A stretch of DNA of 64,000 bases from assembly GCA_965231215.1 (NCBI GenBank), contig OZ246423.1, forward strand, positions 288,001 to 352,000, written 5' to 3'. Under the pieces are notes generated by a model, which did no database searches, had not been told where the DNA came from, and was given only the letters and a program-made list of their open reading frames with translations. Each line of letters starts with the position of its first letter. The stretch's first letter is position 1. This stretch comes from Candidatus Altimarinota bacterium (lineage in GTDB: Bacteria; Patescibacteriota; Gracilibacteria; UBA4473). The position numbers and the translations under genes are program-made. This document shows positions 28,201 through 45,382 of this stretch, piece by piece.

Positions 28201-28714
28201 TGCCGCAGACAAAGTATGGAAAGGAGCTGCCGATGAAGACATTAGAAACGCGCTAGACGAGAGTATGGTTCATAGAAATGGGAATAAAATTATTGGGGCG
28301 AGTAACCGTTTTTATGTTGTTCCGTTTACTGGTGTTGATAAACAATCATTTGAGCAAGCTATTGAAAAAGCCCTAATGGATACTAGTAACTATCCTGGCT
28401 TAAGAATGGCTGGTATTGATGTCACGGAAGTCACTCCGGCGGCTGTCGAATTGGTTTACAATTTCTGTGAAGAATCATGTCTTCGAGGCGGAACGAATCA
28501 AGGTGTAGGGTTTATTCCCCAGAGTCAGCAAAAAGCTAATTCCGAAACAGCAGAATATGAAAATTTACGACGCATTGGCTACGCTATACAAGCTTTAGCC
28601 AAAGACTCTTTTTCTAAAACTGTTAACGAAAAAGGCGGTTTAAAGTCAGTATTAAAAGGACGAAAAATGAAGTTATGTGCACAAGATGAGAAATTAGTCC
28701 TAATTGATATTTAA
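25226..28714 (+). CDS. Large protein with a C-terminal ClpB-like AAA+ domain and a poly-Lys tract
   Basis: GQDKAI, GPSGVGKT, YLDEIDKA; 12 consecutive Lys at 26150-26185. Confidence 0.8.
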   Translation: MPANSVDNFRPLFDDLDVMSLSSADLGEEALQSRVRKLIESGHLPQPENTTPWEELLVTNRLPNLEENEKAALVDLILDGGEINRNSVQGVLSNWPIVQLEALSLILNKERVLADVEFDALLPEFPFPILRGNLFGRYISKKAPDITRATASLKAAIPFFIAVRQILDVLQDDRNNCIILDLDKDRSASGSQGVEKAAIGEALKGLEDIIMSHARSFNRSEKLSSTESQRMVELVMKAIENSHDLSASSTKGIRTVMLPLYKETRAFFDFRKFATEAALQSSELARVKHLFGLDEELEVDKDLETVEPKKKKKKKKKKKKSPTKMKLREILDFFDADDLERFKAEIAEAKQDNQRVLILDDRIDPRLRDSKASTIYPLIEGVYRSGDVSEEGLPAASDVAFLTKPRTGYYDIAVEGMEGATFEHRFNEFTLTDADTPDVLDDIFATLEPDKPVEALQFADDLVQELGVDGASVDWQVIRRAETRYGSASKLNILRYVLESVKSLSEVDLRYVFSVLLSHGVYEVPEDLITTMVKRFGVPVRLWEQYHAFTKNYQPQTFGESPDTFVQLTTLNAYAKCRLDAEGVPAETDQLIKHLHDGRVVVLTDDTRFSGQANADLEGVGESSEENGQPTIRPSSRVLYSLIERTVQGEVPEDMKGASVVSIAPNAVYIWGERYTWPKDFSKVRAELAKLVMHNPNTVVILEPGNIDRPEQFREVIDIIGEYGLRLVIRTNQSVSDFPQVNVVPILDEEIVDRLYYSPTLQQKLELSEPVDKRVLKYLSEVISRRSPDQDPLVLALNILDIAAANIKAVGGDTISLGDITLAAPWALGTPDPSALERGKERILRAGENIKGHLSGQDKAIDMVAELMVAKLQGTMDDTKPCAIVMPGPSGVGKTETSCRLARAAGFKFIPLNGNMFSEPSAVRELFKSDGVFAKTIAANKNGIYFYLDEIDKADISLFQAILQLADSGAFYTSDGKVIYNPSVILALPTNAAADKVWKGAADEDIRNALDESMVHRNGNKIIGASNRFYVVPFTGVDKQSFEQAIEKALMDTSNYPGLRMAGIDVTEVTPAAVELVYNFCEESCLRGGTNQGVGFIPQSQQKANSETAEYENLRRIGYAIQALAKDSFSKTVNEKGGLKSVLKGRKMKLCAQDEKLVLIDI

Positions 28715-28724
28715 AAGTTCTGAG

Positions 28725-28935
28725 TCCACCCACCTCCCTTATTCCAAAAGGGTTAATCAAAGACTAGCTTTCAAGCGTGGGGGGATTACTCGCTTCGCTC
28801 ATGACTTCGTATCGAACCCCGCCCTTCGGGCTTACGGGTTCGAAGCCCAACTCCAAAATATATTTAAAAAAACAGACCCAAGGTCTGTGTTTTTAAATAT
28901 GGCTGGCTTGTGTGGATGAAGTTAGGAAGATTATT
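28725..28935 (+). repeat. Contiguous copy of the dispersed repeat (part A + hairpin core + part B)
   Basis: Matches 20058-20117 and 20969-21085; TCGAACCC..GCCCTTCGGGC..GGGTTCGA hairpin. Confidence 0.9.
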
Positions 28936-29036
28936 ACTAACTTCAAGGCAGAATTAGCCTATAGTCCTTTGAATACACCTACTACAATCTCAATAGTGAG
29001 CTAGACAGCAAGGTCATGAGGATTGAATGAACGTAC

Positions 29037-29067
29037 AAAAAAGCCAGACCTTACAGCCTGGCTTTTA
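29037..29067. terminator. Putative intrinsic terminator AAAAGCCAG...CTGGCTTTT
   Basis: Inverted repeat flanked by A/T tracts downstream of 29098-30492(-). Confidence 0.55.
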
Positions 29068-29097
29068 ACTTTTTTACTAAAATAAAGAAACTAGCCA

Positions 29098-30492
29098 TCA
29101 AGACGTGCGTGCCATTACGGCTTGTGGTAGTTTATCTGCAATACATTTCATAGCCTCCTCAATTTCATCATTTGAAAATTCTGGATAACTTTGTACTAAG
29201 CTTAGAATCCGAACAATCTCATCTTCCATAGTAAAGACACCATCTTGCAGACGAGTAAAGCTTGTGCCAGATTCATCATTTAGAGCTTCCGAAGCTACTG
29301 AACCGGCATCTCTTAGGGCCTGAGCGAAGGCTCTCATTTTTACGTCTTCAAACATATTCCCAGATGGACCAGCTCCAAGCGCCGTCATTTGATTTTCTGC
29401 TAATTTTTGAGCGTAAACTGCTAAATCTACCCCATGTTTACTTTCTAAGTTGGTGAGATATTCTTCAATAAACGCTTCTGCTCTCTCTTCGACACTTTTT
29501 TCACTTTCTGCTTCGTCAACAGATGCAGCCGGTGCCGGCTTTTCGTGACGATTCAGGCTAATGCTTCCATCCTTACCTATAATGGCTGCCTTTCGCATAG
29601 CCGTAGTAATGGCCGTTGCTATTTCTTGTACGGTCCCTACTAAGGCTTGATTGGCCGCTCCACGAAGAACAAACACTTCTTCCCCCTCACCACGGGCAAG
29701 ATAAAAAGTTTCAGCACCGACAGTAACCGTAGAAAAAGTCTTAGGCCCTAGGTGTAATGATTTGTTAAAATCAGTATCTCCAGCATCAAAAGCTACCGCC
29801 AAAGCAGCACTACTTTTTCCCACTCCATATGTACCACGCTTTTTTAGGGTTACTTGAGCTGACGGTTTGGTTTTGTTAGTAATTACATTATCAATAGCTA
29901 GACGAACTCCAGGAGCGGTTAAGGCTACAGGCCTGCTTAGTTGCAATTCGTTGTCACCGCTGGCTTCTAATAGTCCAGAAGCTTCTTGCAATTTTATGGC
30001 TGGCACTGGTTTATCAGTTTCAATAATGGCATAAGTTGAACCTTCTCCTATAAGATACCAGTTAGGAGCGCTCACCCCCGAAGCTTCATGCGCATAAGGG
30101 TGAACCATTTGCGGTTGATCAGCTGTCTGAAGCATGACTTGAGCCCGATCGTAAGCATCTGCCACCATAGCGCCATTGGCGTATAAATCAGAGGTTTGAA
30201 TGCCGTCTTTACTAGAATCCATAACATGCCCGCCATCACGAACTACAAAAGCACGATAGGCCTTTAAGAATTTACCACCATCAGTTAACAATGGAAGCAA
30301 AGCTGTAGCACTACCGCCATACAGAGGCACAACTCTCTTAACTGAAATATTTTCAGCACCATCTTCACCATTAAACAACTGCTCAATGGACGTTGCTAGA
30401 GTTTGATCTTCTAGAAGCCCCAAATCGACTTCAGCAGCAACTTCCGCGGAATTTTCTTCAGGCACTTTAGTTGAGTTTTCATCTTCTGACAT
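29098..30492 (-). CDS. Hypothetical protein (464 aa)
   Basis: Long ORF, no recognised motif. Confidence 0.75.
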   Translation of the reverse strand: MSEDENSTKVPEENSAEVAAEVDLGLLEDQTLATSIEQLFNGEDGAENISVKRVVPLYGGSATALLPLLTDGGKFLKAYRAFVVRDGGHVMDSSKDGIQTSDLYANGAMVADAYDRAQVMLQTADQPQMVHPYAHEASGVSAPNWYLIGEGSTYAIIETDKPVPAIKLQEASGLLEASGDNELQLSRPVALTAPGVRLAIDNVITNKTKPSAQVTLKKRGTYGVGKSSAALAVAFDAGDTDFNKSLHLGPKTFSTVTVGAETFYLARGEGEEVFVLRGAANQALVGTVQEIATAITTAMRKAAIIGKDGSISLNRHEKPAPAASVDEAESEKSVEERAEAFIEEYLTNLESKHGVDLAVYAQKLAENQMTALGAGPSGNMFEDVKMRAFAQALRDAGSVASEALNDESGTSFTRLQDGVFTMEDEIVRILSLVQSYPEFSNDEIEEAMKCIADKLPQAVMARTS

Positions 30493-30639
30493 ATTAGTGA
30501 GTGGGTTAATAAATCATCTACAAGTTATACAAAAAAACATTACTGATTCAAAAAAAATATTAAATATAACAAAAAAACAATTGCGATTATTTGTTTTTGT
30601 TTTAAAAGTGTAAATGATTATAGAGTAACCTAATAAATA

Positions 30640-33600
30640 GTGTCGCCACGAGAACGTCCCATAAAAATCGATGAACTTAACCCACGTTCTTTTGAAGAGA
30701 GCAGAACTGAGTTAGCTTCAGTAGGAGCTGCCCTTAGATCAATTGAAGATGGGTTGCCTAAAAGTGGTTCTCGGCAAGATGTGTACAACTTGACACGCAG
30801 AGGGGTAGCTGCTGCCATTTGTGATCCCTTGTTTCTAAGTTACTTGCGCTGTTCTCCGATGCGAGAAATAGATTTAAATATGGCGACAAAGGGTTTAGTT
30901 AATGATGCCAAAGTTGGCAAAATGTCTAAAAGACATAAACATCATGCCCCAGATAAACAGGCGGTAGCTCGTATGGCTCAGTTCTGGGAAGATGTAGCCG
31001 CTATGCCACAGCAAACGATTGAAGAACTTACCCAATCAAATTCTGATAGAGTTGCCGTAGCCATAGGTATTGAAAAAGGTATTGGAGTAAAAACGAGCCG
31101 TTATTTTGGCCGTTTGCCTGATGAAATCAGTACCTTTACCCGTTTGGCAAATGCAGGCCATCAACAAGAAACTATCTTAGACGTTGAACAGTGGGTTGAT
31201 CAGTTTGATCTTTCTCGTTTTAAATTTAAAAATGGGGCTATTAATCGAGCTGAGATGAGCTCTCGCTTGAGAACTTTAGAATTGCATGAAATCGATTGTT
31301 TAAAAGCGGTACACGACCTAACGGTCCAGTTGGGACCTCAATATCACATAGATAGCCGCCGAATCATCGCGATTGCGAAGCTGAACGACCGCGCTTTTAT
31401 AGACGCGTTGAGCGCCTTTTTACAACGGGGATTTAAAATTACTTTTCCGGAAGTAAAATTATCTGATAAACGCACTGCTAATTTAGGTCGAGGCGTTAGT
31501 ACAAATGATTTAGAAGCCTTTGCTCGAGTGTTCAGTGATGGCCTACCTTACCCAGTTAGGCTACAGTGTGTACGTGGTTTTTCAGTGATCCCAACACAGG
31601 ATCGAGAAGCTGAGTTAGGGACACTTAGAAAGGTGGCGGCTCGTTATTGTGACGATAATTGGCTTATTCCTGAAAACAGGGCTAAACACGAAGCCGATAG
31701 TTCACTACTGGCTTATATGCAGACCGTTTACCAGGAGGTTATTGATTTATCCGTAGAGAAAGGAGCTGCCGTACCCACTAAAAGGCAAGCCGCTCGTATC
31801 GGTGAAATCCCCCCAACCAATTTAGAGCGAGTAAAAGCTCGAATTAGTACTGGTGAATCACTGGAGATAGTGCTGCTTGATCCAGTCACTCATACGTTGA
31901 TGACAGAAGAAGAATATGATCGCTTTTTTGCTCAAGCCCCTCTTACACAAGCCAGGTTTAGCTCGGGTAAGGATATTCAGGAAAAAGCCAAAAAATTAGG
32001 CTGGCCAAAACTGAAAAAACGAGCTTTAGAGCGTCATAAAAAAGCTATGCTTGGGAATCCTGAAATCTGTTTCACTTTATGCAGGCTCAGCGAGCTTGGT
32101 TTTGATATGGGGATGCTTCCTCAATCAAATAAAACAGCCGTACGTTTAAGAAATAATACTAAGTATTTACGGTCAGCCATGGATATGCAAACTATGCTGG
32201 GAGAAAGAGAGGCCCCCATGTCGATTACTGATCTTATCGCTTTAGAAGGTAAAGATCCGGTAGTGGTAGAACGGTTTTTACGCCTAAAAGAGGTTGGCAT
32301 CGCAACGCTTGACCCCTTTGTCTTAAGGCAAGCCGTAAAAATTGCCAGCGAAGAAGAGGGTACTGAAGATAAACTATGGGCTACCATAGAAGAAATTCGT
32401 CGCATCGCCCCTCAAGTAAAAATTAATACTGTTTCTGGAGTCAGAAAGTTTGAGCGTACACCAGACGCTTTAACAGCATTAGAAAGACTGGCACAAATAG
32501 ATGTTTCACTAGACTCAACTCTCATTGAAGAAGTTTGTAACTTAGTGTTAAATGTTGAAGAAGCACTCATTGGCTTAGGGCGTTTAGCAACAGTAGCTCC
32601 TGGCATTAGGCCAGATCGTTTGGCCGCCGTTACGATTTTAGGAAAATCAGACAATGCTGATTACTTACCAGGTTTAAAAGCGGTTGGATATCCAATAGAC
32701 GAAGATCACTTGCAGATCATTATTGATTGTGCTGACGCGCCAGAAAAAGTCTTGAAAGGAATAAAGTATATCAAAGGCCTCATTCCAAACCATGAATTTA
32801 GAACACTTTCGTTCTATAAGAGCGAGTTTGACAGGCCTAGTATTGAAGCCGTATTAAAAGCCTCTGGTATGGCTTTGACGGAATTAAATGATGATAATTT
32901 AGTAACCGTAATTACGGCTGCCCATAAAAGTGAAACTATTGCTAAACAAAGAAAAACTATTCTAACTATAGCTCCTGATTTTAGATTTGAGTTGAAAATG
33001 GGGGTTCATAACCAAGTAGAATTACCGTTTGATCAATATCTTAAAAGCCAGAACCTTAATATTGGTATTATAGACCATTTATATGGGGAAGATGTCGCGA
33101 CCCGTTTGGCAGCAGTCGAAATTTTGTCTTACGCCAGTTTTGACGATAAAGCAGAAGATGTAGTGAAAATGATTGAGGCACAGGGAGGTCAATTAAGGGG
33201 GTTGATAAGTGATAGTGATTCAGCAGAAAGAGAACAGATTGATTTGATTGATCAAGCTTTCAGCCGTTGTAATCCAAGGCTTAAACAACAATTGCAATTA
33301 TCATTACTCCTGAGTGTTAATCCCGAGCTCAGAGAGGCCATGGCTACCATTACCAGCAGTCCTGAAGCCATAATGGAAGCTCTGACTTTTATTGATAGGC
33401 GTAATGGAAGCGTTGAGTCTATTAAAACCGTTACCAAGGTATATCGAGGAACCGATCATAACGCTGATATTGCTCAGGTATTGTTTGATAGTTCAATTGC
33501 GGCTAATTCTGGTGTTTCGAATTCTTTAACGGTTGCTTCTATAGAGAGTGGGCAACACCATAACACAACGATTGTCGAAATTGATGGCACCCCCATTACA

Positions 33601-35025
33601 GAAATTGATCCTGATAGCTTGCAGCCTTTATTAAAAGATAACTTAGTGGCTCGTAATTTTGTAAATGGAACCAGAAAATTAAACATAAAAAGCTTGTCAA
33701 ATAAAGGTTTGCAAATGGTTGTTACTAGTCGCCTAAGAACTTGTATAAACCGCTCACAGGATCCTACTCACTGGCACATGGCTGATATGAGAAACCGAGC
33801 TCAAGCCGTTAGTAAAAACCTTGATCTTTCTGATGGACGGTATCTAGTGCATGCCACACAGACAGTAAACCTACCTCCAATTATGGAGTTGGGCAATCTG
33901 TGCGGTGAGGTGCTTGGTTTAAAGGCAAAAACCGACTCTTATCCTTTTTATGTCGACGGCTACACTACTAAAAGTGGCACTTTTAATAGCACCTACAATG
34001 GTGGTGAAATTAATTTAGTCTTTGGTAATAGTGAAGACTTATCTATTGAGGCAGGTATGCCAGGTATTTCCAAAGGTGGCATGGGCGATAACCACCTTTT
34101 GGTACTGATTGGAATTCCAATCACGAGTCTAAGGGCTATCAAGATAAAAGATGTTAAAAAAGATTTTGAGTTAGTTAAAGCACTAGTAATAGAACGAGGC
34201 TTCTACATTCCTATTTATGACGCTGCCGGTAACTTGTTATTTTCAGCTCAAGACTATGATCAAGCTTTGGCAGACCGAAACGTAAAACCAAATAATCACC
34301 CAACCTATTGGCAGCACATGCTAACTACCGGCTCACAAATGGGGCTTAACCCAGCAGACCAAATTATGCTGCCCTCACCTAATGGACCCGAAAAATACTA
34401 TGCTAAGTGGACAGAAATTACGGATGAAACCCTTTACACCAAGTTAGAAAATGAACGATTTTCTGAAGAGCTATACAGACTAGCTGGTGCCAGAGTACTT
34501 AGTAGTGAACTGGTCAGAGTTGGTACCCGAGTCGCCAAGTCTTCTCGCTGGATTAACGGTTTCACTCCGATTAAGGACGCTAAACAAAAAGCCGAATTTA
34601 ACGCTTTTGCGGTTATGGATATGTGGACAGCCAATTGGGACTTAATTGGCACCGCTGGAAATGTTATGCAATTATTTGATGATCCCGAAGCCATATACCG
34701 GATTGATCACGGTGGGAGCCTCGGTTTTAGGGCTAAAAACCATTCTGGATATAAAGGTCATGGTAGTCCTAATTTTGGACCTGCAGTTCATGAACTTAAA
34801 CCTGGTTCTGCTGCACAGCAATTTGGTAAAGATGGTATGCGACATCGCTATGATGTTTCGGATGAAGCACTAGCGGCTCAAGCCCAGAAATTATTGACAG
34901 ATTTTCCAGATAAAGTTATCAGAGATTTGGCAAACGAGTTCAGAATGCACCGCGAATACAGAGAGCTGGTTACTAAACGCCTGATAGAACGTCGCGATTA
35001 CATAGCCGAACAACTACTTAAATAA
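30640..35025 (+). CDS. Giant multidomain protein: helical repeats, putative ADP-ribosyltransferase-like domain, and C-terminal PI3/4K/HipA-like kinase domain
   Basis: YLVHATQTVNLPPIMELG (ART-like H-x-T strand); YYAK...NE...LYRLAG...DMWTANWD...GN...RIDHGGSL (atypical kinase). Confidence 0.65.
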   Translation: MSPRERPIKIDELNPRSFEESRTELASVGAALRSIEDGLPKSGSRQDVYNLTRRGVAAAICDPLFLSYLRCSPMREIDLNMATKGLVNDAKVGKMSKRHKHHAPDKQAVARMAQFWEDVAAMPQQTIEELTQSNSDRVAVAIGIEKGIGVKTSRYFGRLPDEISTFTRLANAGHQQETILDVEQWVDQFDLSRFKFKNGAINRAEMSSRLRTLELHEIDCLKAVHDLTVQLGPQYHIDSRRIIAIAKLNDRAFIDALSAFLQRGFKITFPEVKLSDKRTANLGRGVSTNDLEAFARVFSDGLPYPVRLQCVRGFSVIPTQDREAELGTLRKVAARYCDDNWLIPENRAKHEADSSLLAYMQTVYQEVIDLSVEKGAAVPTKRQAARIGEIPPTNLERVKARISTGESLEIVLLDPVTHTLMTEEEYDRFFAQAPLTQARFSSGKDIQEKAKKLGWPKLKKRALERHKKAMLGNPEICFTLCRLSELGFDMGMLPQSNKTAVRLRNNTKYLRSAMDMQTMLGEREAPMSITDLIALEGKDPVVVERFLRLKEVGIATLDPFVLRQAVKIASEEEGTEDKLWATIEEIRRIAPQVKINTVSGVRKFERTPDALTALERLAQIDVSLDSTLIEEVCNLVLNVEEALIGLGRLATVAPGIRPDRLAAVTILGKSDNADYLPGLKAVGYPIDEDHLQIIIDCADAPEKVLKGIKYIKGLIPNHEFRTLSFYKSEFDRPSIEAVLKASGMALTELNDDNLVTVITAAHKSETIAKQRKTILTIAPDFRFELKMGVHNQVELPFDQYLKSQNLNIGIIDHLYGEDVATRLAAVEILSYASFDDKAEDVVKMIEAQGGQLRGLISDSDSAEREQIDLIDQAFSRCNPRLKQQLQLSLLLSVNPELREAMATITSSPEAIMEALTFIDRRNGSVESIKTVTKVYRGTDHNADIAQVLFDSSIAANSGVSNSLTVASIESGQHHNTTIVEIDGTPITEIDPDSLQPLLKDNLVARNFVNGTRKLNIKSLSNKGLQMVVTSRLRTCINRSQDPTHWHMADMRNRAQAVSKNLDLSDGRYLVHATQTVNLPPIMELGNLCGEVLGLKAKTDSYPFYVDGYTTKSGTFNSTYNGGEINLVFGNSEDLSIEAGMPGISKGGMGDNHLLVLIGIPITSLRAIKIKDVKKDFELVKALVIERGFYIPIYDAAGNLLFSAQDYDQALADRNVKPNNHPTYWQHMLTTGSQMGLNPADQIMLPSPNGPEKYYAKWTEITDETLYTKLENERFSEELYRLAGARVLSSELVRVGTRVAKSSRWINGFTPIKDAKQKAEFNAFAVMDMWTANWDLIGTAGNVMQLFDDPEAIYRIDHGGSLGFRAKNHSGYKGHGSPNFGPAVHELKPGSAAQQFGKDGMRHRYDVSDEALAAQAQKLLTDFPDKVIRDLANEFRMHREYRELVTKRLIERRDYIAEQLLK

Positions 35026-35041
35026 TTTAAACTTTCATTAC

Positions 35042-36265
35042 ATGAAAACCCCAACTATTATCGATCACTACGGTGACATTACGAATCCTGAATCTATGGA
35101 TATTGCCCCAGAAGCAATAGTAAACGCCGCTAACACTGGCTTGAGAGGTGGTGGTGGAGTTGATGGAGCTATTCACCGTGCGGCAGGGTACGAAGCATTA
35201 CAGGCTGAATGTGCTACCGTTCGTGAAGGCTTACCAAACCAACAGCTAGCTGTGGGAGAAGCGGTTGTTACCGGAGCTTGTGCACTTACCCAATTTGGCA
35301 TTAGTTATATTATTCATACGGTTGGTCCAGACTGCAGACTGAATGAACAAGCTGCACGAAAAGCCGAATTGCTGACTAATGCTTATACCAATAGCTTAAA
35401 ACAAGCCGTTAACCGCGGAGCAAAAACTATAGCCATCCCCGGCATTAGTACTGGTGTATATGGATATGATGCCGATGAAGCGGAAGATGTGTCACGTGCC
35501 GCTATAGAACAATTTTTTGCTAACGGGCATGATAAAGGCATTTTGCAAGAAGTTCACCGTGTGTTTTTTCCTGGATTTAAAAAAGAAGTTTTAGCCGTAG
35601 ATGACAGATCGATTGAAGTCGCCTTACACCCGCAGCTAGGTGCCGACACCATTACCATTATGATGGGAGGCCTAAACGGTCATGTTGATGGCTGGATGCA
35701 CAAAAATACAAAAGTTGCAGAGTTGTTACGTCGACAGGCTAATACCGCTGTTGTAAGAGCAGGTGGACCACAGGCAGAGGGCGGTGTTGAAGATCCACAC
35801 ATCATGCAGCAAGCTCGAGCACTGATTAAAAAAAGTATCGCTCAGGCAGAAGCTTTAACGGGTAAACCCGCCAGTGAACTTACCTTTCAGGTTTCCGGTT
35901 ATTCGGCTGGTGGTTCTGGCATGGCGGCGGTAGCGCATGAATTTCCACAAATTAAAAAAATGTTGTTGGTTGCCCCCTCGGTAAATGCCGGAGATAAAAA
36001 TGTTAAGCAAGGGCTTATGAAATTTAGAGGAAATGTGGCCATTACGGTTGGAAAAGAAGATGAGCTGGCAAAGTATGCTGAAAAGTTAATCGCTCATACT
36101 GAAGGAAGAACTCTCCCAATTCACTTTCAAGAACTTTCTAACGTGGACCACAGATTTACTGGGGTTCGTGGAGGTGAACTATTCTCCGCCTCATTTTTAT
36201 GGGGACTCGATAACCAAGGAGAGCATTTAGAAAGCAGCCAGCGTGGCATTAAGCTCTACAATTAG
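35042..36265 (+). CDS. Macrodomain (ADP-ribose hydrolase) fused to an alpha/beta hydrolase
   Basis: GDIT, AIVNAANTGLRGGGGVDGAIHRAAG, IIHTVGP, PGISTGVYG; C-terminal GYSAGG, D and H residues. Confidence 0.88.
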   Translation: MKTPTIIDHYGDITNPESMDIAPEAIVNAANTGLRGGGGVDGAIHRAAGYEALQAECATVREGLPNQQLAVGEAVVTGACALTQFGISYIIHTVGPDCRLNEQAARKAELLTNAYTNSLKQAVNRGAKTIAIPGISTGVYGYDADEAEDVSRAAIEQFFANGHDKGILQEVHRVFFPGFKKEVLAVDDRSIEVALHPQLGADTITIMMGGLNGHVDGWMHKNTKVAELLRRQANTAVVRAGGPQAEGGVEDPHIMQQARALIKKSIAQAEALTGKPASELTFQVSGYSAGGSGMAAVAHEFPQIKKMLLVAPSVNAGDKNVKQGLMKFRGNVAITVGKEDELAKYAEKLIAHTEGRTLPIHFQELSNVDHRFTGVRGGELFSASFLWGLDNQGEHLESSQRGIKLYN

Positions 36266-36653
36266 ATGGAGATAGGTGAGCCATTATTGCATCCAAAAAA
36301 TCCACGAATGGAATTTCGTGTCGAAGATAATACTCGATTCGATACAGCAGGTGGCTAATGCCGTTATTAATGGTATAAAAACAAGAATTTGCTTTCACAT
36401 TACAGTTGGATTTGAAGAAGCTTTTGTTCCAGCAGATGAAAATACTCTTTTTCAAGCACCAAAATTTAATACCCCGTTTAAGTTAAATACGGTGCATTAA
36501 AGAAAAGCTGCTCTTAGCTCACCTCCACCCCAAGTGCGTGGGAATACGACCCTAAAAGTACTTTTACAGATATCTAAAGGCCCAAGCACGCCAAAAATCC
36601 GACATTACCTTCTACATAGGTATGTGGGAATTGGCTGTACTTAAAGTATCAAT

Positions 36654-36683
36654 TGGCTGCGAACGATTGACCATATTAGAACC
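36654..36683 (+). repeat. att-like repeat TGGCTGCGAACGATTGACCATATTAGAACC
   Basis: One mismatch to 25112-25141. Confidence 0.8.
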
Positions 36684-36717
36684 TTTTACCAAAACTTGGA
36701 GTAATCATTAAGAACTC

Positions 36718-37776
36718 CTAAAAACCCAATCTTTCTAGCTCTGCTAAGTGTGGTTTTAGATCTTGATGATCAGGTATATAATTTCTGTCGATTAGAGGGT
36801 TTTGTCGACATCTTGGATCAGCTTCTCTTCGGTTATATTCTGTCCAATAATCTTCAACTATCTCTGGGTACTTGGTTTTTAGTATTTGAAGGAAGCGAAC
36901 CATCGTTGGTAGTGCTATCTTATTTCGCTCAATATTTTGCTTGTCAGCTTGTTCTTGATAGTCATCAGCATTGTAATCGAGCCTTGGCCAGTCTCGTTCA
37001 GTAAGAGCTAATCTTAACCCCATTACGATATCTCCAATTGATGAAGCTCCATTTGATAAATGAAAGTCTAAAATATTAAATCCTTGTTCTGGATCGTACA
37101 TAAAATTGGAAGGTTTTGGGTCAATAGTTATTCCATTTTCGTGTAACTCCAGCACCGTATCAATAAGCTGAGTAATATGTTCATCAGAGTACTCGATTGG
37201 CTCTTCTGGAGGAATTTGTGTTACATCTCTTCCAGACAGAAGTTCCATTATTACACAACTATCATCAAAAGAATAAGCTACAAGCTGTGCTGTATGCTCA
37301 ATCCCCTTTGCCTGTCTAAGTGGTTTCGTTTCAAAATTTGCTTGTGTCAAATTTCGAGAAAATTTAGCGGCGTATTTCTTTCCATTGACCTCAATTATGT
37401 ATGCACTTCCGTTGCTCCCAGACCCTAGGTATTCTGGAAGAGCTTTGGGGTCATCTGTACTGGCTAAATTTTGCTTTAATCGTTCAATTACAGGCCTAAA
37501 GGAGGTATTATAAAGCTCCGCGTTAGCATGTCGAAATTCCAACTCATCTTTGGGGGCATTTCGAATAGCCTCAGTATATTTTTTGCGGTTTTCTGTGATG
37601 ACTGTAGCTAGTTCTTCTGGAACATCTGATAACTCATCTAGATTTGTAATTTTGGAAAGCCTCGCACTATTGCCGAGCAATAATTTTTGTTCATCAGAAA
37701 ATTCTTTAACACCAGTATCAGCAAAAAATTCAGCTTGAGCCTGGAGTTCTTCGGGAGACTTTTGTCTTATTTTCAT
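36718..37776 (-). CDS. Protein kinase-like protein
   Basis: LGSGSNGSAY, AAKF, IMELL, DPKPSNF, LDF. Start taken at MKIRQ, after TGCTATAAT. Confidence 0.8.
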   Translation of the reverse strand: MKIRQKSPEELQAQAEFFADTGVKEFSDEQKLLLGNSARLSKITNLDELSDVPEELATVITENRKKYTEAIRNAPKDELEFRHANAELYNTSFRPVIERLKQNLASTDDPKALPEYLGSGSNGSAYIIEVNGKKYAAKFSRNLTQANFETKPLRQAKGIEHTAQLVAYSFDDSCVIMELLSGRDVTQIPPEEPIEYSDEHITQLIDTVLELHENGITIDPKPSNFMYDPEQGFNILDFHLSNGASSIGDIVMGLRLALTERDWPRLDYNADDYQEQADKQNIERNKIALPTMVRFLQILKTKYPEIVEDYWTEYNRREADPRCRQNPLIDRNYIPDHQDLKPHLAELERLGF

Positions 37777-37869
37777 TAGTATATTATAGCATTTTTTTAA
37801 AACAAAAACAATATGCACTAAGTAGCTGCAATCTACTTAGTGTATTAGAGCCTAATAAAGCAAAAAATG

Positions 37870-38166
37870 TTAGTTTACTAAGTTATACTCTTCCATCTCA
37901 CCATACACTTCCGAAATTTCAGTATTGAGTTGTTTTATATACTCTTTGGCTACCTGTGAAAAAAGATCTGCTTCAACATTTTCAAGTTCAATTTTAAACA
38001 CACCATCTTTTAATAGAGTTATTAGTTGATTGAATGCATTCTTTACCATAATTGGTTTGTCTTCACAGATTGGAATTCTAACTTGAGTGTCATCATCGTA
38101 TACTATTACGATTACTCTTTTATCATCAATATTTTCGACAGTTGCTTTAAGCGTTTTCATTACCAT
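37870..38166 (-). CDS. Small hypothetical protein coupled to the upstream ATPase remnant
   Basis: Overlaps the stop of the 38147-38455 fragment. Confidence 0.6.
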   Translation of the reverse strand: MVMKTLKATVENIDDKRVIVIVYDDDTQVRIPICEDKPIMVKNAFNQLITLLKDGVFKIELENVEADLFSQVAKEYIKQLNTEISEVYGEMEEYNLVN

Positions 38167-38455
38167 AGATTTTACTTCTTTCTCCAAATGCTTCAACACC
38201 ACCTTCAAGTGTTTTCATGCTGATCTTTTTCCAGTCAATTTTTAACGATTCATCTTCTGTATTAACAAGACTGTTTGAAAAAGGATTTCCAATAAAAGTC
38301 TTATAACCTTCTGGACCATGACTTCTATATACCGAGTTATATGGTAAGGTTCTTACAGCAATATTTGCATCATGAGTTGAGATAAAAATTTTTTTACCTG
38401 CTTTGGCTAGCTCTTTGATTATTGGAGCGATAATTTTATAGAATACCTCATTCCC
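38147..38455 (-). pseudogene. C-terminal fragment of an ABC/SMC-type (TrlF-like) ATPase
   Basis: IFISTHDANI H-loop and LEGG..AF..R...Y ending; Walker A and B missing. Confidence 0.65.
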
Positions 38456-38690
38456 GAAGACAAAAGGTATATATCCTTCAACTTTTCTCGAACAGAAAAC
38501 GGATAAAAGGTCGGACAAGTGTCCAATCACTTTATTTACTTGATAAAGACCCCCTGCACGTATGGAGGCTTTCGGTATTGGTTCATATGTCCAAAATGCA
38601 CAAACAGGTGCTGTATCGTTTATAAATTGCATGGAGGTTTCGCGTGTAGGAAATGCCAAAATCTGTGTTATCAACTTCAAAAAGAGTGGG
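38456..38690 (+). pseudogene. Fragment of a zinc-finger hypothetical gene common on mobile elements
   Basis: YGGFRYWFICPKC...FACRKCQNLCY; in-frame TAA upstream. Confidence 0.5.
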
Positions 38691-38704
38691 GCTACTTCAA
38701 GCTG

Positions 38705-38915
38705 TTTGGGAAGCTGTTCTACAAAAGGAAATATTGCACTCAACACAAAACTTATTAGAACGCCAAAAGACTGTATTCAGTATGTAATTGTGCACGAATT
38801 ATGCCATCTTTTGGAACATAACCACAGCAAGGAGTTTTACAGACTCCAACAAAAGCATTTCCCACTTTGGGAAAAAGCAAAAAAGAAACTGGAGATGTTC
38901 AGTTTCGAGATTTGA
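38705..38915 (+). pseudogene. C-terminal fragment of an M48/YgjP (DUF45) metalloprotease
   Basis: GSCSTKGNIALN...YVIVHELCHLLEHNHSKEFY; N-terminus absent. Confidence 0.75.
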
Positions 38916-38961
38916 TATTTAGTCCTCTGTAAAAATAACATTTTTTGACTATACTCTAAAT

Positions 38962-40290
38962 ATGTTAAATCAATCTTTTTCTGCAGAAAATTTTCGTAAA
39001 ATATTCGATATCGAAAATAGAAAAGGAGTTAATCTTGATGTTTTTTTCCCAAAAACAAGAAAGTTCACCGAAAAAATAAAATCATGTAATGAAGAAATAA
39101 GAAAAGCTAAAAGGCTAAAAAAGACAAAGGATGAAATAAAAAAATTGTATGAACAAAAGGCAGGATTTAGAAAAAAGAGAGAAACAGAATTAGATAAAGA
39201 ATTAGAAAAAGTATCAAAAAAATGTTTAGAAAAAAACTTCAGAATAAAACTCAATCAAGTTTTAATACCCAGCAAAAAGACTCTTTATACAGTACAAGAT
39301 CTCCCAAAATATTATTTTGCAGTTAAGCAAATTCAGCATAATCTTTCCCGATTATATAAAGTGAAGCAATCTGATAGAAGTGCCATTATGAGTAACTTTT
39401 TAACATTACTTAATGATGGTTTTCCTAAAGTTGTTATAAGGACTGATATTAGCGAATGCTACGAAAGTATTCCTCATGAGAAACTGCTAAAGAAAATAGA
39501 TGAGGATGGCTTGCTTGCATTTTTTTCCAAGAAAATAATTAAACAACTTCTATTTGATTACAAAAAAGCAGCAAAATCAAAAAAAGGTGTGCCACGAGGC
39601 ATCGGAGTCAGTGCCTCATTATCGGAGATTTATTTAAGAAAAATAGACATGGAAATTAAGAATATTCCTGGGCTCATTTACTACGCAAGATATGTTGATG
39701 ATATTGTAGCAATATTTTGCCCATCTAATGGGGAAACCGAAGACGAATATGGACAAAGCAAATTAAAATTAGTTAAAGAAAGCATTAAAAGTGCAGGATT
39801 AAAAGTGAATACAAAAAAAACAAAGTGTTTTCATTTGCTTGAAAACGACTATGAGACTGTAGATATAGATTATTTAGGATACGCTATAGAACTTAAATCA
39901 GGAGATCTCACGATTTCTTTAACAAAAAATAAAATTGATAAATATAAAAAGAAAATCGATTTAATATTTGATGCATATAAATTCAATAAGATAAATGACG
40001 AAAAATCCGCTAGAAAAATATTCGTTAAAAGAGTTCGTTTTATAACAGGGAACACTCGATTAAAAAATAACAAGAAAAATATATTAGTTGGAATTTATTA
40101 CTCTAATAAGCATTTATCTTCTTTGAAATCTCTAAAAATATTGGATGAATACTTAGAAAGAAAAGTCAGTACGTTACCAGATACTCTAAAAGATAGAATC
40201 AAAGACTATAAATTTTCAACAGGGTTTGAAACAAGACGTTTCTCTCCATTTACCAGTACCCAATTAAAGAATATAGTTTCTATTTTTTAA
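38962..40290 (+). CDS. drt3a: Antiphage reverse transcriptase, DRT3 subunit a (UG3-like)
   Basis: MLNQSFSAENFRKIF N-terminus, RTDISECYESI, GVPRGIGVSA, RYVDD, DYLGY. Confidence 0.88.
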   Translation: MLNQSFSAENFRKIFDIENRKGVNLDVFFPKTRKFTEKIKSCNEEIRKAKRLKKTKDEIKKLYEQKAGFRKKRETELDKELEKVSKKCLEKNFRIKLNQVLIPSKKTLYTVQDLPKYYFAVKQIQHNLSRLYKVKQSDRSAIMSNFLTLLNDGFPKVVIRTDISECYESIPHEKLLKKIDEDGLLAFFSKKIIKQLLFDYKKAAKSKKGVPRGIGVSASLSEIYLRKIDMEIKNIPGLIYYARYVDDIVAIFCPSNGETEDEYGQSKLKLVKESIKSAGLKVNTKKTKCFHLLENDYETVDIDYLGYAIELKSGDLTISLTKNKIDKYKKKIDLIFDAYKFNKINDEKSARKIFVKRVRFITGNTRLKNNKKNILVGIYYSNKHLSSLKSLKILDEYLERKVSTLPDTLKDRIKDYKFSTGFETRRFSPFTSTQLKNIVSIF

Positions 40291-40300
40291 GGCATTTAGA

Positions 40301-42301
40301 ATGAAGAAAAAAAGAAAAATTTCCATAAAATACACCAAGGCAAGAACGATTTTATCTGATGTTTTGCCTTATGAAATTCCTGTAATTTTTTCCAACAGAC
40401 ATTTCTATCGTTTTCTAAATAATTTTGAGCCGAACATTTCAAAAAAGTTGGTATCAATAGAAAAAAACAAAGAAAACAAAGTAGCTGCTGAATTAGCAAA
40501 TCTTATTTTTGGTGAAGATCATACAACTATTCCTTTTCTCTATAATATTACGCATAAAGGGGATGATTTCCGACAATTAACGCTGATTCACCCAAGAAAC
40601 CAAGTCGCTGTGATTGATTTTTACGAAGAATATAAAGACCTTCTTCTCTACTATTGCTCAATAAGCCCTTTTTCTATTAGATATCCAGAAAGAGTTGCTA
40701 AACTAACTTATTTTAGAGATAAGGTTCATCAAGAAAACCTTTCTACTGAACATGAACACGAACTTCTTGAAGAAAGGAATCGAGAATATGAAAATCTAAA
40801 AACTTTTTTTGTATACAAGAACTACAGCAATATTCACAGATTTTACGAATCATTTAAATATCATAGGTGTGAAAAAAAATATAATCGTCTTGTTAAATTT
40901 GATATACAAAAGTGTTTTGAAAGTATTTATACACATTCAATCTGTTGGGCAACTTTAAATAAAAAAATAGTAAAAGATAACCTAGGAAATAATAAAACGG
41001 AAAATACATTTGGAGGTAAATTTGATAGGTTAATGCAAAATTTAAATTACTCTGAAACAAATGGTATCGTTATTGGACCAGAGTTTTCCAGGATATTTTC
41101 AGAAATAATTCTTCAAAAAATAGATAAAGATGTATTAGCCGCACTTGAAGAGTCTACCAATCTAAAACATAAAGTTGATTTTGAAATATTTCGTTACGTT
41201 GATGATTACTTTCTTTTTTACAATAAAGAAGAAGATAGAGAGATAATTATGACAATATTTAAGCTGAATCTGAAAGAATATAAACTTCAGATTAGCAGAG
41301 AGAAGACTGAGATCTACGATAAACCAATTATTACATTGATCACTATAGCAAAACAGCAAATTAGGGATTTATTAAATGAATATCTTTCTTTTTCCTTAGA
41401 TGAAAAAGATGATCCAAATAAAAAAATATCCATATATGTAAGTTCAAATGCTCTTATTACTAAATTCAAAACAATACTAAAGCAAACAGAAGTTGAATAT
41501 AAAGACATTTTGAATTACACGCTGGCTATTATAGACCGTAAAATCGTTAAGATTTTGAAAGATTTTAAAGAAAATAAATTTGAAGAAAAAAAGTTAATAA
41601 ATGCTTTGTTTGAGATTCTTGAATTTACATTTTTTGTTTACTCTGTTTTCCCTAAAGTAAATACCACAGTTAAGTTATGCCACATTTTAAGCAAAATAAC
41701 AAACTTCATAAGTAAGAATCCTAAGAAAATTAATATTGATCATGCGCACCTCTTGAAAAAAAAGATATTTGATGAAGCTTATTTGGTCTTAAAAAAGAAT
41801 AAAACTAAATCACATATTCAAATCGAAACGCTTTATTTATTGATTGTTTTACAAGAGCTCGGAAAAGAATATCTCTTAGATCAAGAAGTTTTACGAGATT
41901 ACTTCAATCCAGATCAAAAAAAGAATTGGGAAGAGGTTGATTTAGAATATTTTTCAATAGTCGTTTTACTTTTCTACATTAAAAACAAAAAGAGGTATGA
42001 AGACCTAAAGAATCAATTAAGAGTTATCATTTTAGAAAAATTTAAGAAATCTAATGTGACAGATAGACACAAAAAATCAGAACTAGTATTACTGCTTTTA
42101 GATCTCCTTAGTTGTCCATACTTAGAGGAATCGTTTAAAAAAGAATTATTAGAACTTAGAAAAATAACGAATAATCAAACAAAAGAGCAAATAATCGCTT
42201 GGGGAAAGAAAGAAAAAGAGAATAGATATTGGTTTGTGAAATGGGAAGGATTTAACTTAGAAAAAGAATTAGATGCAAAGAAAGGTCAGGAAGTTTACTA
42301 A
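40301..42301 (+). CDS. drt3b: Antiphage reverse transcriptase, DRT3 subunit b (UG8-like)
   Basis: LSDVLPYEIPVIFSN, FDIQKCFESIYTHS, GIVIGPEFSRIFSE, RYVDDY; 10 bp downstream of drt3a. Confidence 0.88.
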   Translation: MKKKRKISIKYTKARTILSDVLPYEIPVIFSNRHFYRFLNNFEPNISKKLVSIEKNKENKVAAELANLIFGEDHTTIPFLYNITHKGDDFRQLTLIHPRNQVAVIDFYEEYKDLLLYYCSISPFSIRYPERVAKLTYFRDKVHQENLSTEHEHELLEERNREYENLKTFFVYKNYSNIHRFYESFKYHRCEKKYNRLVKFDIQKCFESIYTHSICWATLNKKIVKDNLGNNKTENTFGGKFDRLMQNLNYSETNGIVIGPEFSRIFSEIILQKIDKDVLAALEESTNLKHKVDFEIFRYVDDYFLFYNKEEDREIIMTIFKLNLKEYKLQISREKTEIYDKPIITLITIAKQQIRDLLNEYLSFSLDEKDDPNKKISIYVSSNALITKFKTILKQTEVEYKDILNYTLAIIDRKIVKILKDFKENKFEEKKLINALFEILEFTFFVYSVFPKVNTTVKLCHILSKITNFISKNPKKINIDHAHLLKKKIFDEAYLVLKKNKTKSHIQIETLYLLIVLQELGKEYLLDQEVLRDYFNPDQKKNWEEVDLEYFSIVVLLFYIKNKKRYEDLKNQLRVIILEKFKKSNVTDRHKKSELVLLLLDLLSCPYLEESFKKELLELRKITNNQTKEQIIAWGKKEKENRYWFVKWEGFNLEKELDAKKGQEVY

Positions 42302-42304
42302 ATA

Positions 42305-42436
42305 AGATATTGGAATATAATAGGTTTGTTCGACTCCGTCTAAACTCCAATTCACACACAAGTCGACGTTTCCTTCTTTTGTTTAAAACAATGAAAGATT
42401 GAACAATAAAGTAGCAGGGACGGGCTACTTTTTTTT
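42305..42436 (+). ncRNA. Putative DRT3-associated structured ncRNA with an ACACAC tract
   Basis: Directly follows drt3b; several complementary segments, CACACACA at 42353-42360, ends in a terminator. Boundaries approximate. Confidence 0.7.
42408..42436 (+). terminator. Intrinsic terminator of the DRT3 locus
   Basis: AAAGTAGC-agggacgg-GCTACTTT followed by a T run. Confidence 0.8.
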
Positions 42437-42691
42437 GTAAAATTTTTTTTTGGGAATAAGAAAAATATCACAATGTAATTTCCACTTAGTGCCCCTTCGT
42501 CCTAGGTACACGGGTCTGTCTGCCTTCTTTTCCGCCGATCCAATCCCACAAAGCATACAGAAAAAACGGGTCTAGAACCCTTAGAATATTTCTGTACGTG
42601 GATCACTATGATGCATAGTGTACGTAATGGCTGACTACTCGGGTCTAGAAACAAAAATGAGACAAATAAGACAGTATAAAAAAGGAGTGTC

Positions 42692-42910
42692 TCAAACGTG
42701 GAATCGTTTATCAGTCTTAGATTTTTCCAGTCTGCGTTTCTGAAATTCTCTTACCGCTTCTTCGGGAAAGATCCAACCCGCTGAAGTTCTTTGGGCTGGA
42801 ATAAGTTTATCGCTTATAATACGTTGGATAAAACTACGCGAGACGTTCAGGATTCGCTGAACATCTTTTGAACCAACCAGTTTTACGCCATTAAAATAAT
42901 CTTTCTCCAT
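42692..42910 (-). CDS. Small excisionase/MerR-like helix-turn-helix protein
   Basis: SKDVQRILNVSRSFIQRII...IPAQRTSAGWIF. Confidence 0.75.
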   Translation of the reverse strand: MEKDYFNGVKLVGSKDVQRILNVSRSFIQRIISDKLIPAQRTSAGWIFPEEAVREFQKRRLEKSKTDKRFHV

Positions 42911-42999
42911 ACGATGGTTTTTGTCTTGCCATTGTATGTTGAATCTGGCTTAATATCAGTGTGCAATTGCATACTAATTTTATAACCTGATATTTTCTC

Positions 43000-44064
43000 A
43001 TGAATAACAAAGAAAAACCGAAATCAAAAACGAGAATATGGCGCTGGATTGGCCTCTATATCATCATTTCATTTCTGGCAGGACTAACCATCGCCTTACC
43101 ACCAGTCGGAGGTCTTTTGAGTATTTGGTTTATCTGGAGTTGGAATAAGCAAGATAAAAAGACTAAAGAATTGATAGGTAATATTAAATCACACCCTTGG
43201 CGTATAGCCTTTACGGTTTTAGTGGCTTTAGCCATGTTTGCAAAATCCAGCTCAATGTTACTTGGGACTTTAGTGATACTTTTACTAATTTGGCTGTTTC
43301 CAAATACAGAAAAAGAAACTTTGGTAGAAAGATTAAAAGGCTTCAAATCACATAAAGTAAAAACAGGAGTGTCCACCTTCTTGCTACTAGTAGGAGGAGT
43401 AATGACCATCGGTCTTCATAGCTCAGAAAAACTGATCCAAGAGCAGAAAGAATTTATTGAGTCATATCCAACCCCTGTAATCCAAGTAGAGAGCATTCCC
43501 CATCAAGGAGCGAATACTGAGTATGATCTGACTTTTACGGTAAAAGATACAGAAAGCGTTAGGATCAATGGAAAACCGATAGAAGTTCTTGAAGGAAATA
43601 TTGACTATAAAGTGTCTCTAAACCAACCGACAACGAACTTAAAGATCGAAGCTAAAAATCAGCATAAGCAGGCAACAAAAGATATTATTATCCAAAGAGA
43701 TAAAACCGAAGCTGAATTAATAGCTGAGGAAGAAGAAAGAAAAAGACAAGCTGAACTGGCTAAACAAAAAGCGGAAGCCGAAAGGCTCGTAGAACTAAAC
43801 AGCGTCAGTGATTCTGAAGCTTACGTCATGGCCCAAGGTTTTGTGAAGGCTATGCTGAAGTCTCCTAAAACAGCTGATTTCCCCTTTCTAGATTACAGTC
43901 ATAGAAACTTAGGCGATGGGAAATGGATTATTCAATCTTATGTGGATTCACAAAACGGTTTCGGAGCGATGATACGAACTCAATATCAAGTAGAGATGCA
44001 ATTTAACGGCGGTGATTGGGCAGAACAAAGAAATTGGACTCTACTAGATATATCCACTCAGTAG
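43000..44064 (+). CDS. Membrane protein with an Ig-like domain and a conserved C-terminal domain
   Basis: N-terminal TM helices; LKSPKTADFP...YVDSQNGFGAMIRTQY. Confidence 0.75.
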   Translation: MNNKEKPKSKTRIWRWIGLYIIISFLAGLTIALPPVGGLLSIWFIWSWNKQDKKTKELIGNIKSHPWRIAFTVLVALAMFAKSSSMLLGTLVILLLIWLFPNTEKETLVERLKGFKSHKVKTGVSTFLLLVGGVMTIGLHSSEKLIQEQKEFIESYPTPVIQVESIPHQGANTEYDLTFTVKDTESVRINGKPIEVLEGNIDYKVSLNQPTTNLKIEAKNQHKQATKDIIIQRDKTEAELIAEEEERKRQAELAKQKAEAERLVELNSVSDSEAYVMAQGFVKAMLKSPKTADFPFLDYSHRNLGDGKWIIQSYVDSQNGFGAMIRTQYQVEMQFNGGDWAEQRNWTLLDISTQ

Positions 44065-44992: not shown

Positions 44993-45382
44993 ATGAAAAC
45001 AATTTTAGCCCTAACCGCTCTCTCCTCGAAGCTCACCATGCTTCTGTGTGTGAGTTGTATGGGGTTATTTAGTGTTGTTCAAGATTCTTTCGCGGCCGAT
45101 ATGCCACCTTGTCATCAAGAAGTAGTACAAGAAGATGAAGCCAAAGAACCTTGTGAAGTGTGTGAAACGGCTCTTGAAGCGTGGGAAGAAAATGCAGTGG
45201 CTACTTCTGATATTCAGACGGTCAAAGTTACAGAACTCACTTTTGTAACCGATAATGTTCTTGAAAATTTTGTACTAGAACTAAAACCTTTAGAAGGTGT
45301 TTACCAAGCTTATTATCCTCCGCCACAAGTTTTATTGAAGGCGGTTACTCCAAATACCAAGACCATAGTGTTGTTGTCTTAG
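44993..45382 (+). CDS. Small secreted or membrane Cys-containing protein
   Basis: Hydrophobic N-terminus, MPPCH, CEVC, PPP near the end. Confidence 0.6.
   Translation: MKTILALTALSSKLTMLLCVSCMGLFSVVQDSFAADMPPCHQEVVQEDEAKEPCEVCETALEAWEENAVATSDIQTVKVTELTFVTDNVLENFVLELKPLEGVYQAYYPPPQVLLKAVTPNTKTIVLLS

Follow-up and report, generated by a model that had tools for sequence, protein, structure and literature searches.

The DNA analysed here, hereafter the window, is a stretch of 64,000 nucleotides (nt) from Candidatus Altimarinota bacterium (contig OZ246423.1, positions 288,001 to 352,000), whose genome is a single 1.33 Mb contig. To judge from its sequence, the segment 38962-42436 of the window is a complete DRT3 anti-phage system, which consists of the reverse transcriptase (RT) genes drt3a and drt3b and a cis-encoded non-coding RNA (ncRNA) of ~107-111 nt at 42326-42436. 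The two genes are adjacent and co-oriented on the + strand, and their open reading frames (ORFs) are intact and carry the catalytic motifs. The RNA is our main subject. An earlier note, made from the letters of the window, had pointed to a region that begins 4 nt past the drt3b stop codon and had proposed an RNA with crossing stems, in which an AC tract serves as template for an RT. We conclude that 42326-42436 is very probably a new example of the published DRT3 ncRNA family and belongs to a minimal subclass without the 5' stem-loop. Gene identity, RNA family membership, the covarying helices and the conserved residues are supported in this analysis.

The gene drt3a (38962-40290, + strand) encodes a class 2 (UG3) RT of 442 amino acids with the motif YVDD at residues 244-247. 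Its product is Drt3a of PADLOC (PDLC03768, E 1.4e-107) and is also matched by Pfam RVT_1. The similarity to the solved chain PDB 9z6y_A ('Drt3a reverse transcriptase protein') is distant (E 3.3e-20), and the alignment ends at chain residue 357. The gene drt3b (40301-42301, + strand) encodes a class 1 (UG8) RT of 666 amino acids, which is Drt3b of PADLOC (PDLC03784, E 1.2e-210) and matches the solved Drt3b structures PDB 26cz_A (E 2.1e-84) and 9z6y_H (9z6y/9z6z; E 3.7e-81).

Functional residues of Drt3b were mapped with the printed alignment to 26cz_A and then onto the residues named in PMC13174585 (section 7), whose numbering is that of EcoDRT3b. E25 is equivalent to E22 of EcoDRT3b, the dATP gate. 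R91 corresponds to R71, and D201 and F206 correspond to D182 and F187. R264 is equivalent to R241, the dCTP gate and switch. The catalytic motif is Y299-V-D-D302 (YVDD of EcoDRT3b), and the C-terminal Y666 is equivalent to the priming tyrosine Y666 of EcoDRT3b. Among 34 Drt3b homologues, E25 is at least 90% conserved, and the other mapped residues (R91, R264, YVDD and Y666) are invariant.

The closest relatives of this Drt3b are 90% identical (one metagenome contig, L088) and 59% identical, and the rest are ~50-55% identical, many of them from Bacteroidota. No true Drt3b was found in the 60 related genomes searched, in which the best hits (E 1e-35 to 1e-39) are partial matches to other RTs. 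Therefore, the DRT3 system was probably gained by horizontal transfer.

As the earlier note had suggested, covariance models were built from the regions downstream of drt3b homologues, which comprised 80 genome and 80 metagenome loci encoding Drt3b. The first model, R1, contains no pseudoknot and has the window in its seed. It scores 72.9 bits against 42326-42436 and gave 95 matches in 100 loci (678 kb, both strands), one per locus, all on the strand of drt3b and just past its stop codon. R1 failed on L072 and L086, though both carry ACACAC. From the R1 matches we made an alignment, A4, in which the window and its close relative L088 were left out, and the second model, R2, was built from A4 only (95 homologous loci). 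R2 gives a full-length match to 42326-42436 on the + strand with 71.4 bits (E 4.7e-10), and this match begins 24 nt past the drt3b stop codon. No other match in the window reaches E ≤ 0.01, and none elsewhere in the 1.33 Mb genome is significant (next best E 0.26). R2 was also run on 60 other sources, and in 45 of these the element lies directly downstream of drt3b on the same strand. The model missed 15 of 61 sources, of which 5 have little or no downstream DNA and 10 are divergent or belong to a class with long inserts.

The putative template tract is CACACACA at 42353-42360 (+ strand), and the ACACAC at 42354-42359 within it is invariant. ACACAC lies within 260 nt downstream of the drt3b stop in 78 of the 80 genome loci. 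In the remaining two, the protein match is truncated or DNA past the stop is missing; R1 later found the element in L045, one of the two. All 73 metagenome loci with at least 120 nt of downstream DNA carry ACACAC within 300 nt (the other 7 of the 80 are too short), and the chance expectation by our own arithmetic is ~0.07 per 300 nt. In A3, a MAFFT alignment of 136 sequences for which 12 of 148 distinct sequences had been set aside for length, the six ACACAC columns are the only invariant columns. The commonest form of the tract is CACACACA itself (68 of 109 distinct homologues). On its own, this string is at chance level, with three occurrences in the window and at least three in 7 of 100 shuffles. 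The further tracts lie at 45045-45052 and 57747-57754. Around the latter (57705-57844), R1 gave a match of 10.1 bits (E 4.6), which is not significant.

Three helices of the RNA had in essence been named before, and all three are borne out by the homologues. P1 is the stem TCGACT/AGTCGA of the earlier note. Its 5' arm is TCGAC plus U42335 (42330-42335), and its 3' arm is A followed by GUCGA (42361-42366). P3 is a hairpin at 42375-42398, in which 42375-42383 pairs with 42390-42398 and 42384-42389 form the loop. P4 is a terminal hairpin at 42408-42431 (stem 42408-42415/42424-42431), followed by a U tract to 42436, and is intrinsic-terminator-like in a terminator scan; the earlier note had called it a terminator. 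An inverted-repeat scan likewise gives a palindromic hairpin within 42371-42398 and the repeat 42405-42415/42424-42434. All three helices are on the + strand. Many proteobacterial homologues retain P4 without the T run.

For A3, the structure was named from the window as P1 (42330-42334/42362-42366), P3, P4 and a crossing pseudoknot helix (PK, 42336-42341/42418-42423). With this structure, 74.3% of the cells are paired vs 40-48% in slid controls. The covariation score is 0.437 vs at most 0.162 in slid controls and was reached by 0 of 500 shuffles; for P1, P3 and PK, this support and that which follows consist of pair counts for structures named by the analyst. By helix, 81.8% (P1), 80.1% (PK) and 90.0% (P4) of the cells are paired. 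P3 is poorly aligned by MAFFT, with 37% and 58% of the cells paired in its two parts.

Scores are higher in the model-based alignments, namely 0.490 in A4 and 0.627 in A5, a second set of 46 sequences that includes the window (slid controls at most 0.162 and 0.187, respectively; 0 of 500 shuffles reached the scores). P1 is paired in 90.6% of the cells in A4 and 92.6% in A5, and all 5 core pairs are changed on both sides. For P4, the values are 93.3% and 94.5%, and all 8 pairs covary. In the main helix of P3, all 8 pairs are changed on both sides, and for 5 of them most rows without a gap at either position show pairing. The P3 helix overall is paired in 64.8% (A4) and 68.7% (A5) of the cells, and the outer P3 helix is weak even in these alignments (43-59%). 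P3 is also formed in the minimum-free-energy fold. The comparison with L088, whose Drt3b is 90% identical, agrees with this picture. Between the two RNAs there are 7 substitutions and one 2-nt insertion, all of them outside P1, the PK strands, the template and the P4 core, and T42375C/A42398G in L088 is a compensatory pair in P3.

The crossing helix PK is formed by the 5' strand CCGUCU (42336-42341) and the 3' strand GGACGG (42418-42423), which lies inside the P4 loop (both + strand). R1 does not contain PK; hence the A4 alignment was not fitted to it. In A4, 78.8% of the PK cells are paired vs 37-62% in slid controls, and 72 cells are changed on both sides vs 28 ± 6 in shuffles, a value reached by 0 of 500. 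The helix was replicated in A5 (~83% paired). In a register-free test, the 14 nt that follow the P1 5' arm were compared with the P4 loop, and a run of 6 or more contiguous pairs counted as positive. This was the case in 79 of 114 distinct sequences, several short cases being model misalignments, vs a background of 18% with loops swapped among sequences and 11% with loops shuffled. PK covaries through more than 25 different sequence pairs, for example CCGUCU/GGACGG, CAGUCC/GGACUG, CCGCUCU/GGAGCGG and CUGCC/GGCAG. An alignment-free test on 147 distinct loci points in the same direction with a high background, as at least 7 bp were found in 74 of 147 vs 26.8% with swapped partners. The covariation thus supports that 42336-42341/42418-42423 forms a pseudoknot. 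We found no mention of a pseudoknot in DRT3 RNA in the literature texts searched, a scope that does not extend to the primary structure paper, the figures, the supplements or the PDB RNA chain. In this fold, ACACAC sits between the PK 5' strand and the P1 3' arm. The tract 42353-42360 is thus unpaired in the supported structure, as had been claimed in the earlier note.

PK and template are joined by the single-stranded linker AAACUCCAAUU (42342-42352, + strand; 10-11 nt), which holds no 5' stem-loop. In L088, this linker has two substitutions, which are not compensatory. Among 109 distinct homologues, 42 have a short linker without a hairpin and 64 have a hairpin at that position. Linker length is narrowly distributed in both classes; as measured, 33 of the 42 hairpin-less linkers have 8-10 nt. 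The occurrence of this layout in 42 of 109 homologues together with its tight linker length argues for a functional subclass and against decay. A third arrangement is seen in the Flavobacterium loci L070, L073, L078 and L083, in which an insert of ~100 nt separates the template from the P1 5' arm and ACACAC lies 124-131 nt past the stop. The models built here misplace P1 in these four loci. A PK-type pairing is kept in L073, L078 and L083 (CCAGUCA/UGACUGG).

The element is also present in E. coli. R2 matches 120 nt that start 2 nt past the drt3b stop of an E. coli plasmid locus, L168, with 34.3 bits (E 3.6e-5). There, P1 is formed by AGCGC/GCGCU and PK by CAGGC/GCCUG, so that the sequence is fully changed and the pairing is kept. 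RefSeq annotates drt3a/drt3b of the L168 type in 9 of 5,426 complete E. coli genomes and annotates nothing at the position of the RNA element. The L168 proteins have 449 (Drt3a) and 680 (Drt3b) amino acids. Those of the published systems, which were not among the loci found, have 398/667 and 426/650. In strain no107 (chromosomes H23-H31 set), the 120-nt RNA element is 100% identical to L168 4507-4626 and drt3ab is 92.2% identical. Therefore, the RNA is more conserved than the genes. On the IncY plasmid CP083496.1 (L168 2462-4505), drt3b is annotated as two coding sequences. Near-identical chromosomal copies have a single drt3b of 680 amino acids, and the corresponding span is 1 nt shorter in them, which suggests a frameshift or a sequencing error in CP083496.1.

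Between the drt3b stop and P1, the window has a spacer of 28 nt (42302-42329), which is shared with L088 and absent from most homologues; over 140 loci, the median distance from stop to P1 is 5 nt. A consensus scan finds a promoter-like site, TTTACT-16 nt-TATAAT, at 42294-42321 (+ strand, 10 of 12 matches), and its TATAAT (42316-42321) lies in the spacer together with TAGGTTTG (42321-42328). L088 keeps TTTACT-16-TATAAT, and TAGGTTTG reads TAGGATTG there. The boxes at 42294-42321 are a possible dedicated promoter for the RNA. The string TAGGTTTG fits TAnnTTTG, which we take to be the -7 box of Bacteroidota. Either promoter-like element, if used, would place the transcription start near P1.

Several points weigh against assigning this RNA to the published family. 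According to a DRT10 preprint that refers to the solved E. coli complex, two stem-loops flank the DRT3 template, and the 5' one is contacted by Y419 of Drt3a. The linker 42342-42352 has no such hairpin, and the alignment of the present Drt3a to the solved chain, on which a check of the Y419 contact depends, stops at residue 357. In a review, the E. coli ncRNA has a length of 130 nt and its motif occupies positions 108-113. These figures could not be reconciled with the layout found here, where ~25-45 nt separate the motif from the start of P1. Rfam gave no match over 38000-44000 at E up to 1, and because it has no family for DRT3 RNA, membership rests on the models built here and not on a published one. 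The minimum-free-energy fold of 42302-42445 is no better than those of shuffles (z = -0.62), and RNAalifold recovers only P4 from the 136-sequence MAFFT alignment. A search of public sequencing runs found no RNA run covering the locus. As to the first two points, the 5' stem-loop is known from a single E. coli structure and need not be a defining feature of the whole family, and the E. coli systems studied in the papers may belong to the long-insert class.

Other readings of the stretch have to be weighed on the same data. The fold drawn in the earlier note differs from ours, as ATTGGA (42309-42314) would pair with TCCAAT (42346-42351) and cross TCGACT (42330-42335)/AGTCGA (42361-42366), and TTGTTC (42326-42331) would pair with GAACAA (42401-42406) to close the domain. 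The sequence and the inverted-repeat scan place all of these strings, and CACACACA at 42353-42360, where the note had them. All arms are perfectly complementary in the window, the ATTGGA arm is extendable to 11 nt at 82% complementarity, and TTGTTC/GAACAA is extendable to 8 bp. By our own arithmetic, 6-bp complements are expected about twice in ~130 nt. Because the strings alone are at chance level, their significance has to come from homologues, and these do not bear out the two additional stems. In L088, the first stem reads ATTTCA/TCTAAC, with changes on both arms that are not compensatory and leave 3 of 6 pairs. Its 5' arm is in the spacer that most homologues lack, whereas P1 generally starts a few nucleotides past the stop, and transcription from the promoter-like site at 42294-42321 would leave it outside the RNA. 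For TTGTTC/GAACAA, 33.0% of the cells are paired (134 distinct homologues) vs 31.0 ± 1.5% in shuffles and 30-44% in slid controls. This stem overlaps the P1 5' arm, and in an alignment-free test an 8-bp match arises in ~8% of swapped pairs; its arms are unchanged in L088, which is uninformative either way. Hence, the claim of a pseudoknot topology stands through the covarying helix 42336-42341/42418-42423, and the pseudoknot as drawn does not. Likewise, the AC tract, P1, the hairpin and the terminator are conserved in homologues as the note had expected, and ATTGGA/TCCAAT and TTGTTC/GAACAA are not. We consider the drawn fold extremely unlikely. A separate observation concerns the extended helix 42326-42333/42399-42406 (TTGTTCGA with TTGAACAA, one G-U pair), whose formation would be at the expense of P1 and the base of P3. 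L088 has the same letters there; in other homologues the helix is not conserved, and it is within chance expectation. It could be an alternative conformer.

The least probable alternative, to which we give almost no weight, is that the stretch is merely the 3' untranslated region of drt3b with an intrinsic terminator and a fortuitous AC tract and encodes no functional RNA. The canonical terminator-like hairpin with its T run would fit this, as would the unremarkable z-score of the fold, the chance-level frequency of CACACACA in the window and the lack of a listed RNA run for the locus. It does not account for an invariant ACACAC, nor for the covariation of P1, the pseudoknot and P4 in ~140 loci from many phyla, and the many proteobacterial homologues that keep P4 without a T run also speak against it. 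So do the E. coli strain in which the element is identical and the genes have diverged and the published E. coli mutagenesis, in which, according to PMC13174585, motif mutation abolishes product and defence. Very unlikely, too, is an inactive or diverged DRT3, in which the RNA, having lost its 5' stem-loop anchor, is only a scaffold or yields a product unlike that of E. coli. This would be in line with the missing hairpin between the pseudoknot strand and the template, with the distant similarity of Drt3a to the solved chain and with the absence of DRT3 from the 60 related genomes searched, which points to horizontal acquisition. Against it, both ORFs are intact with catalytic motifs, the template and all helices fit the R2 consensus, and the hairpin-less layout recurs in the homologues with a constrained linker length. 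The preferred reading remains a DRT3 ncRNA of the minimal subclass.

If the locus works like its E. coli counterparts, the mechanism is one already published in 2026, in which an RNA-templated and a protein-templated strand make GT/AC repeat DNA. According to PMC13174585 (Wang et al., bioRxiv 2026), the E. coli ncRNA is encoded downstream of drt3b and has a highly conserved ACACAC in a loop, and mutation of this motif abolishes poly(dTdG) synthesis and defence. Poly(dTdG) is the product of Drt3a, which depends on the RNA. Drt3b needs no RNA for its poly(dCdA); Y666 serves as primer, E22 and R241 act as gates, and the two strands combine as double-stranded DNA. The product is restrained by RecBCD, and the system is triggered by the phage protein Gam (same source). 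According to reviews of Deng et al. (Science 2026), Drt3a, Drt3b and ncRNA form a 6:6:6 complex, and the motif is located in the active site of Drt3a. For the present locus, it is from this literature that we infer that the RNA is transcribed and acts as template, that the DNA products are made and that the system has a defence function. The RNA would fold into P1 (42330-42335/42361-42366), P3 (42375-42398), P4 (42408-42431) and the H-type pseudoknot 42336-42341/42418-42423, which would leave CACACACA (42353-42360) single-stranded and immediately 5' of the P1 3' arm. The homology with E. coli DRT3 suggests that Drt3a binds the RNA and copies ACACAC repeatedly, with a dinucleotide slip-back in each round, to give poly(dTdG), and that Drt3b initiates from its C-terminal tyrosine Y666. 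In the proposal of the earlier note, one RT copies the AC tract repeatedly into poly(GT), and poly(AC), in one of the two options named, comes from the second RT working without a template of nucleic acid; this agrees with what is published for E. coli DRT3.

What might replace the 5' stem-loop is a matter for a tentative suggestion, which we hold to be possible but doubtful. The H-type PK may be a family-wide tertiary clamp. In the subclass without the 5' stem-loop, PK and the length-constrained linker of ~10 nt might instead provide Drt3a with a 5' anchor and template boundary, with P4 acting as both terminator and structural partner.

The locus adds a compact natural variant to DRT3, namely an RNA of ~107 nt without a 5' stem-loop and with a canonical terminator, in an organism with a small genome. 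The comparison of ~140 loci singles out ACACAC as the only invariant sequence of the RNA and a long-range pseudoknot that covaries. Together, they offer a minimal scaffold and mutational targets for what sets the template boundary and the slippage register in DRT3. Neither Rfam nor the RefSeq annotation of E. coli genomes includes this RNA, so defence islands would be better annotated with a public model.

The part of the window that precedes the DRT3 operon (25226-38746) holds large genes, most of them unassigned. One product, of 1162 amino acids, contains an AAA domain and weakly matches DolB of PADLOC (E 1.5e-12). The others are a 1461-amino-acid protein without a Pfam match, a Macro-domain protein of 407 amino acids (E 2.1e-33) and, on the opposite strand, a protein with a weak, sub-threshold kinase match. 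These genes may be a defence island.

The closest known system is the E. coli DRT3 ncRNA (PMC13174585; Deng et al. 2026, PDB 9Z6Y/9Z6Z). Both RNAs lie directly downstream of drt3b on the same strand, carry a conserved single-stranded 5'-ACACAC-3' and are partnered by UG3 (Drt3a) and UG8 (Drt3b) proteins. The Drt3b gate, catalytic and priming residues are shared, and R2 matches both elements. The present system differs in its host with a 1.33 Mb genome and in its Drt3b, which is ~41% identical to the E. coli plasmid copy. The window has no stem-loop 5' of the template, whereas E. coli L168 has GGCUGUUGGCAGCC there. Moreover, the window has the 28-nt spacer with promoter-like boxes before P1, and its P4 is a canonical U-tract terminator.

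Telomerase RNA also has an internal template that is reused by slippage, a boundary element 5' of it and a pseudoknot near the template, and this analogy is drawn in the cited papers as well. The two RNAs are not homologous, and in DRT3 the repeat is a dinucleotide, synthesis is protein-primed instead of chromosome-end-primed, and the purpose is immunity and not end maintenance.

The ncRNAs of DRT10 and DRT9, as described in PMC12632851 and 10.64898/2026.06.29.735271, share with DRT3 a short template in a structured cis-encoded RNA, anchored helices and repeated copying into tandem-repeat DNA. They differ in the RT families (UG17 and UG28), in their products (longer repeats and poly-dA), and in their templates and oligomeric states. 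In these accounts, neither system has a second RT that is protein-templated.

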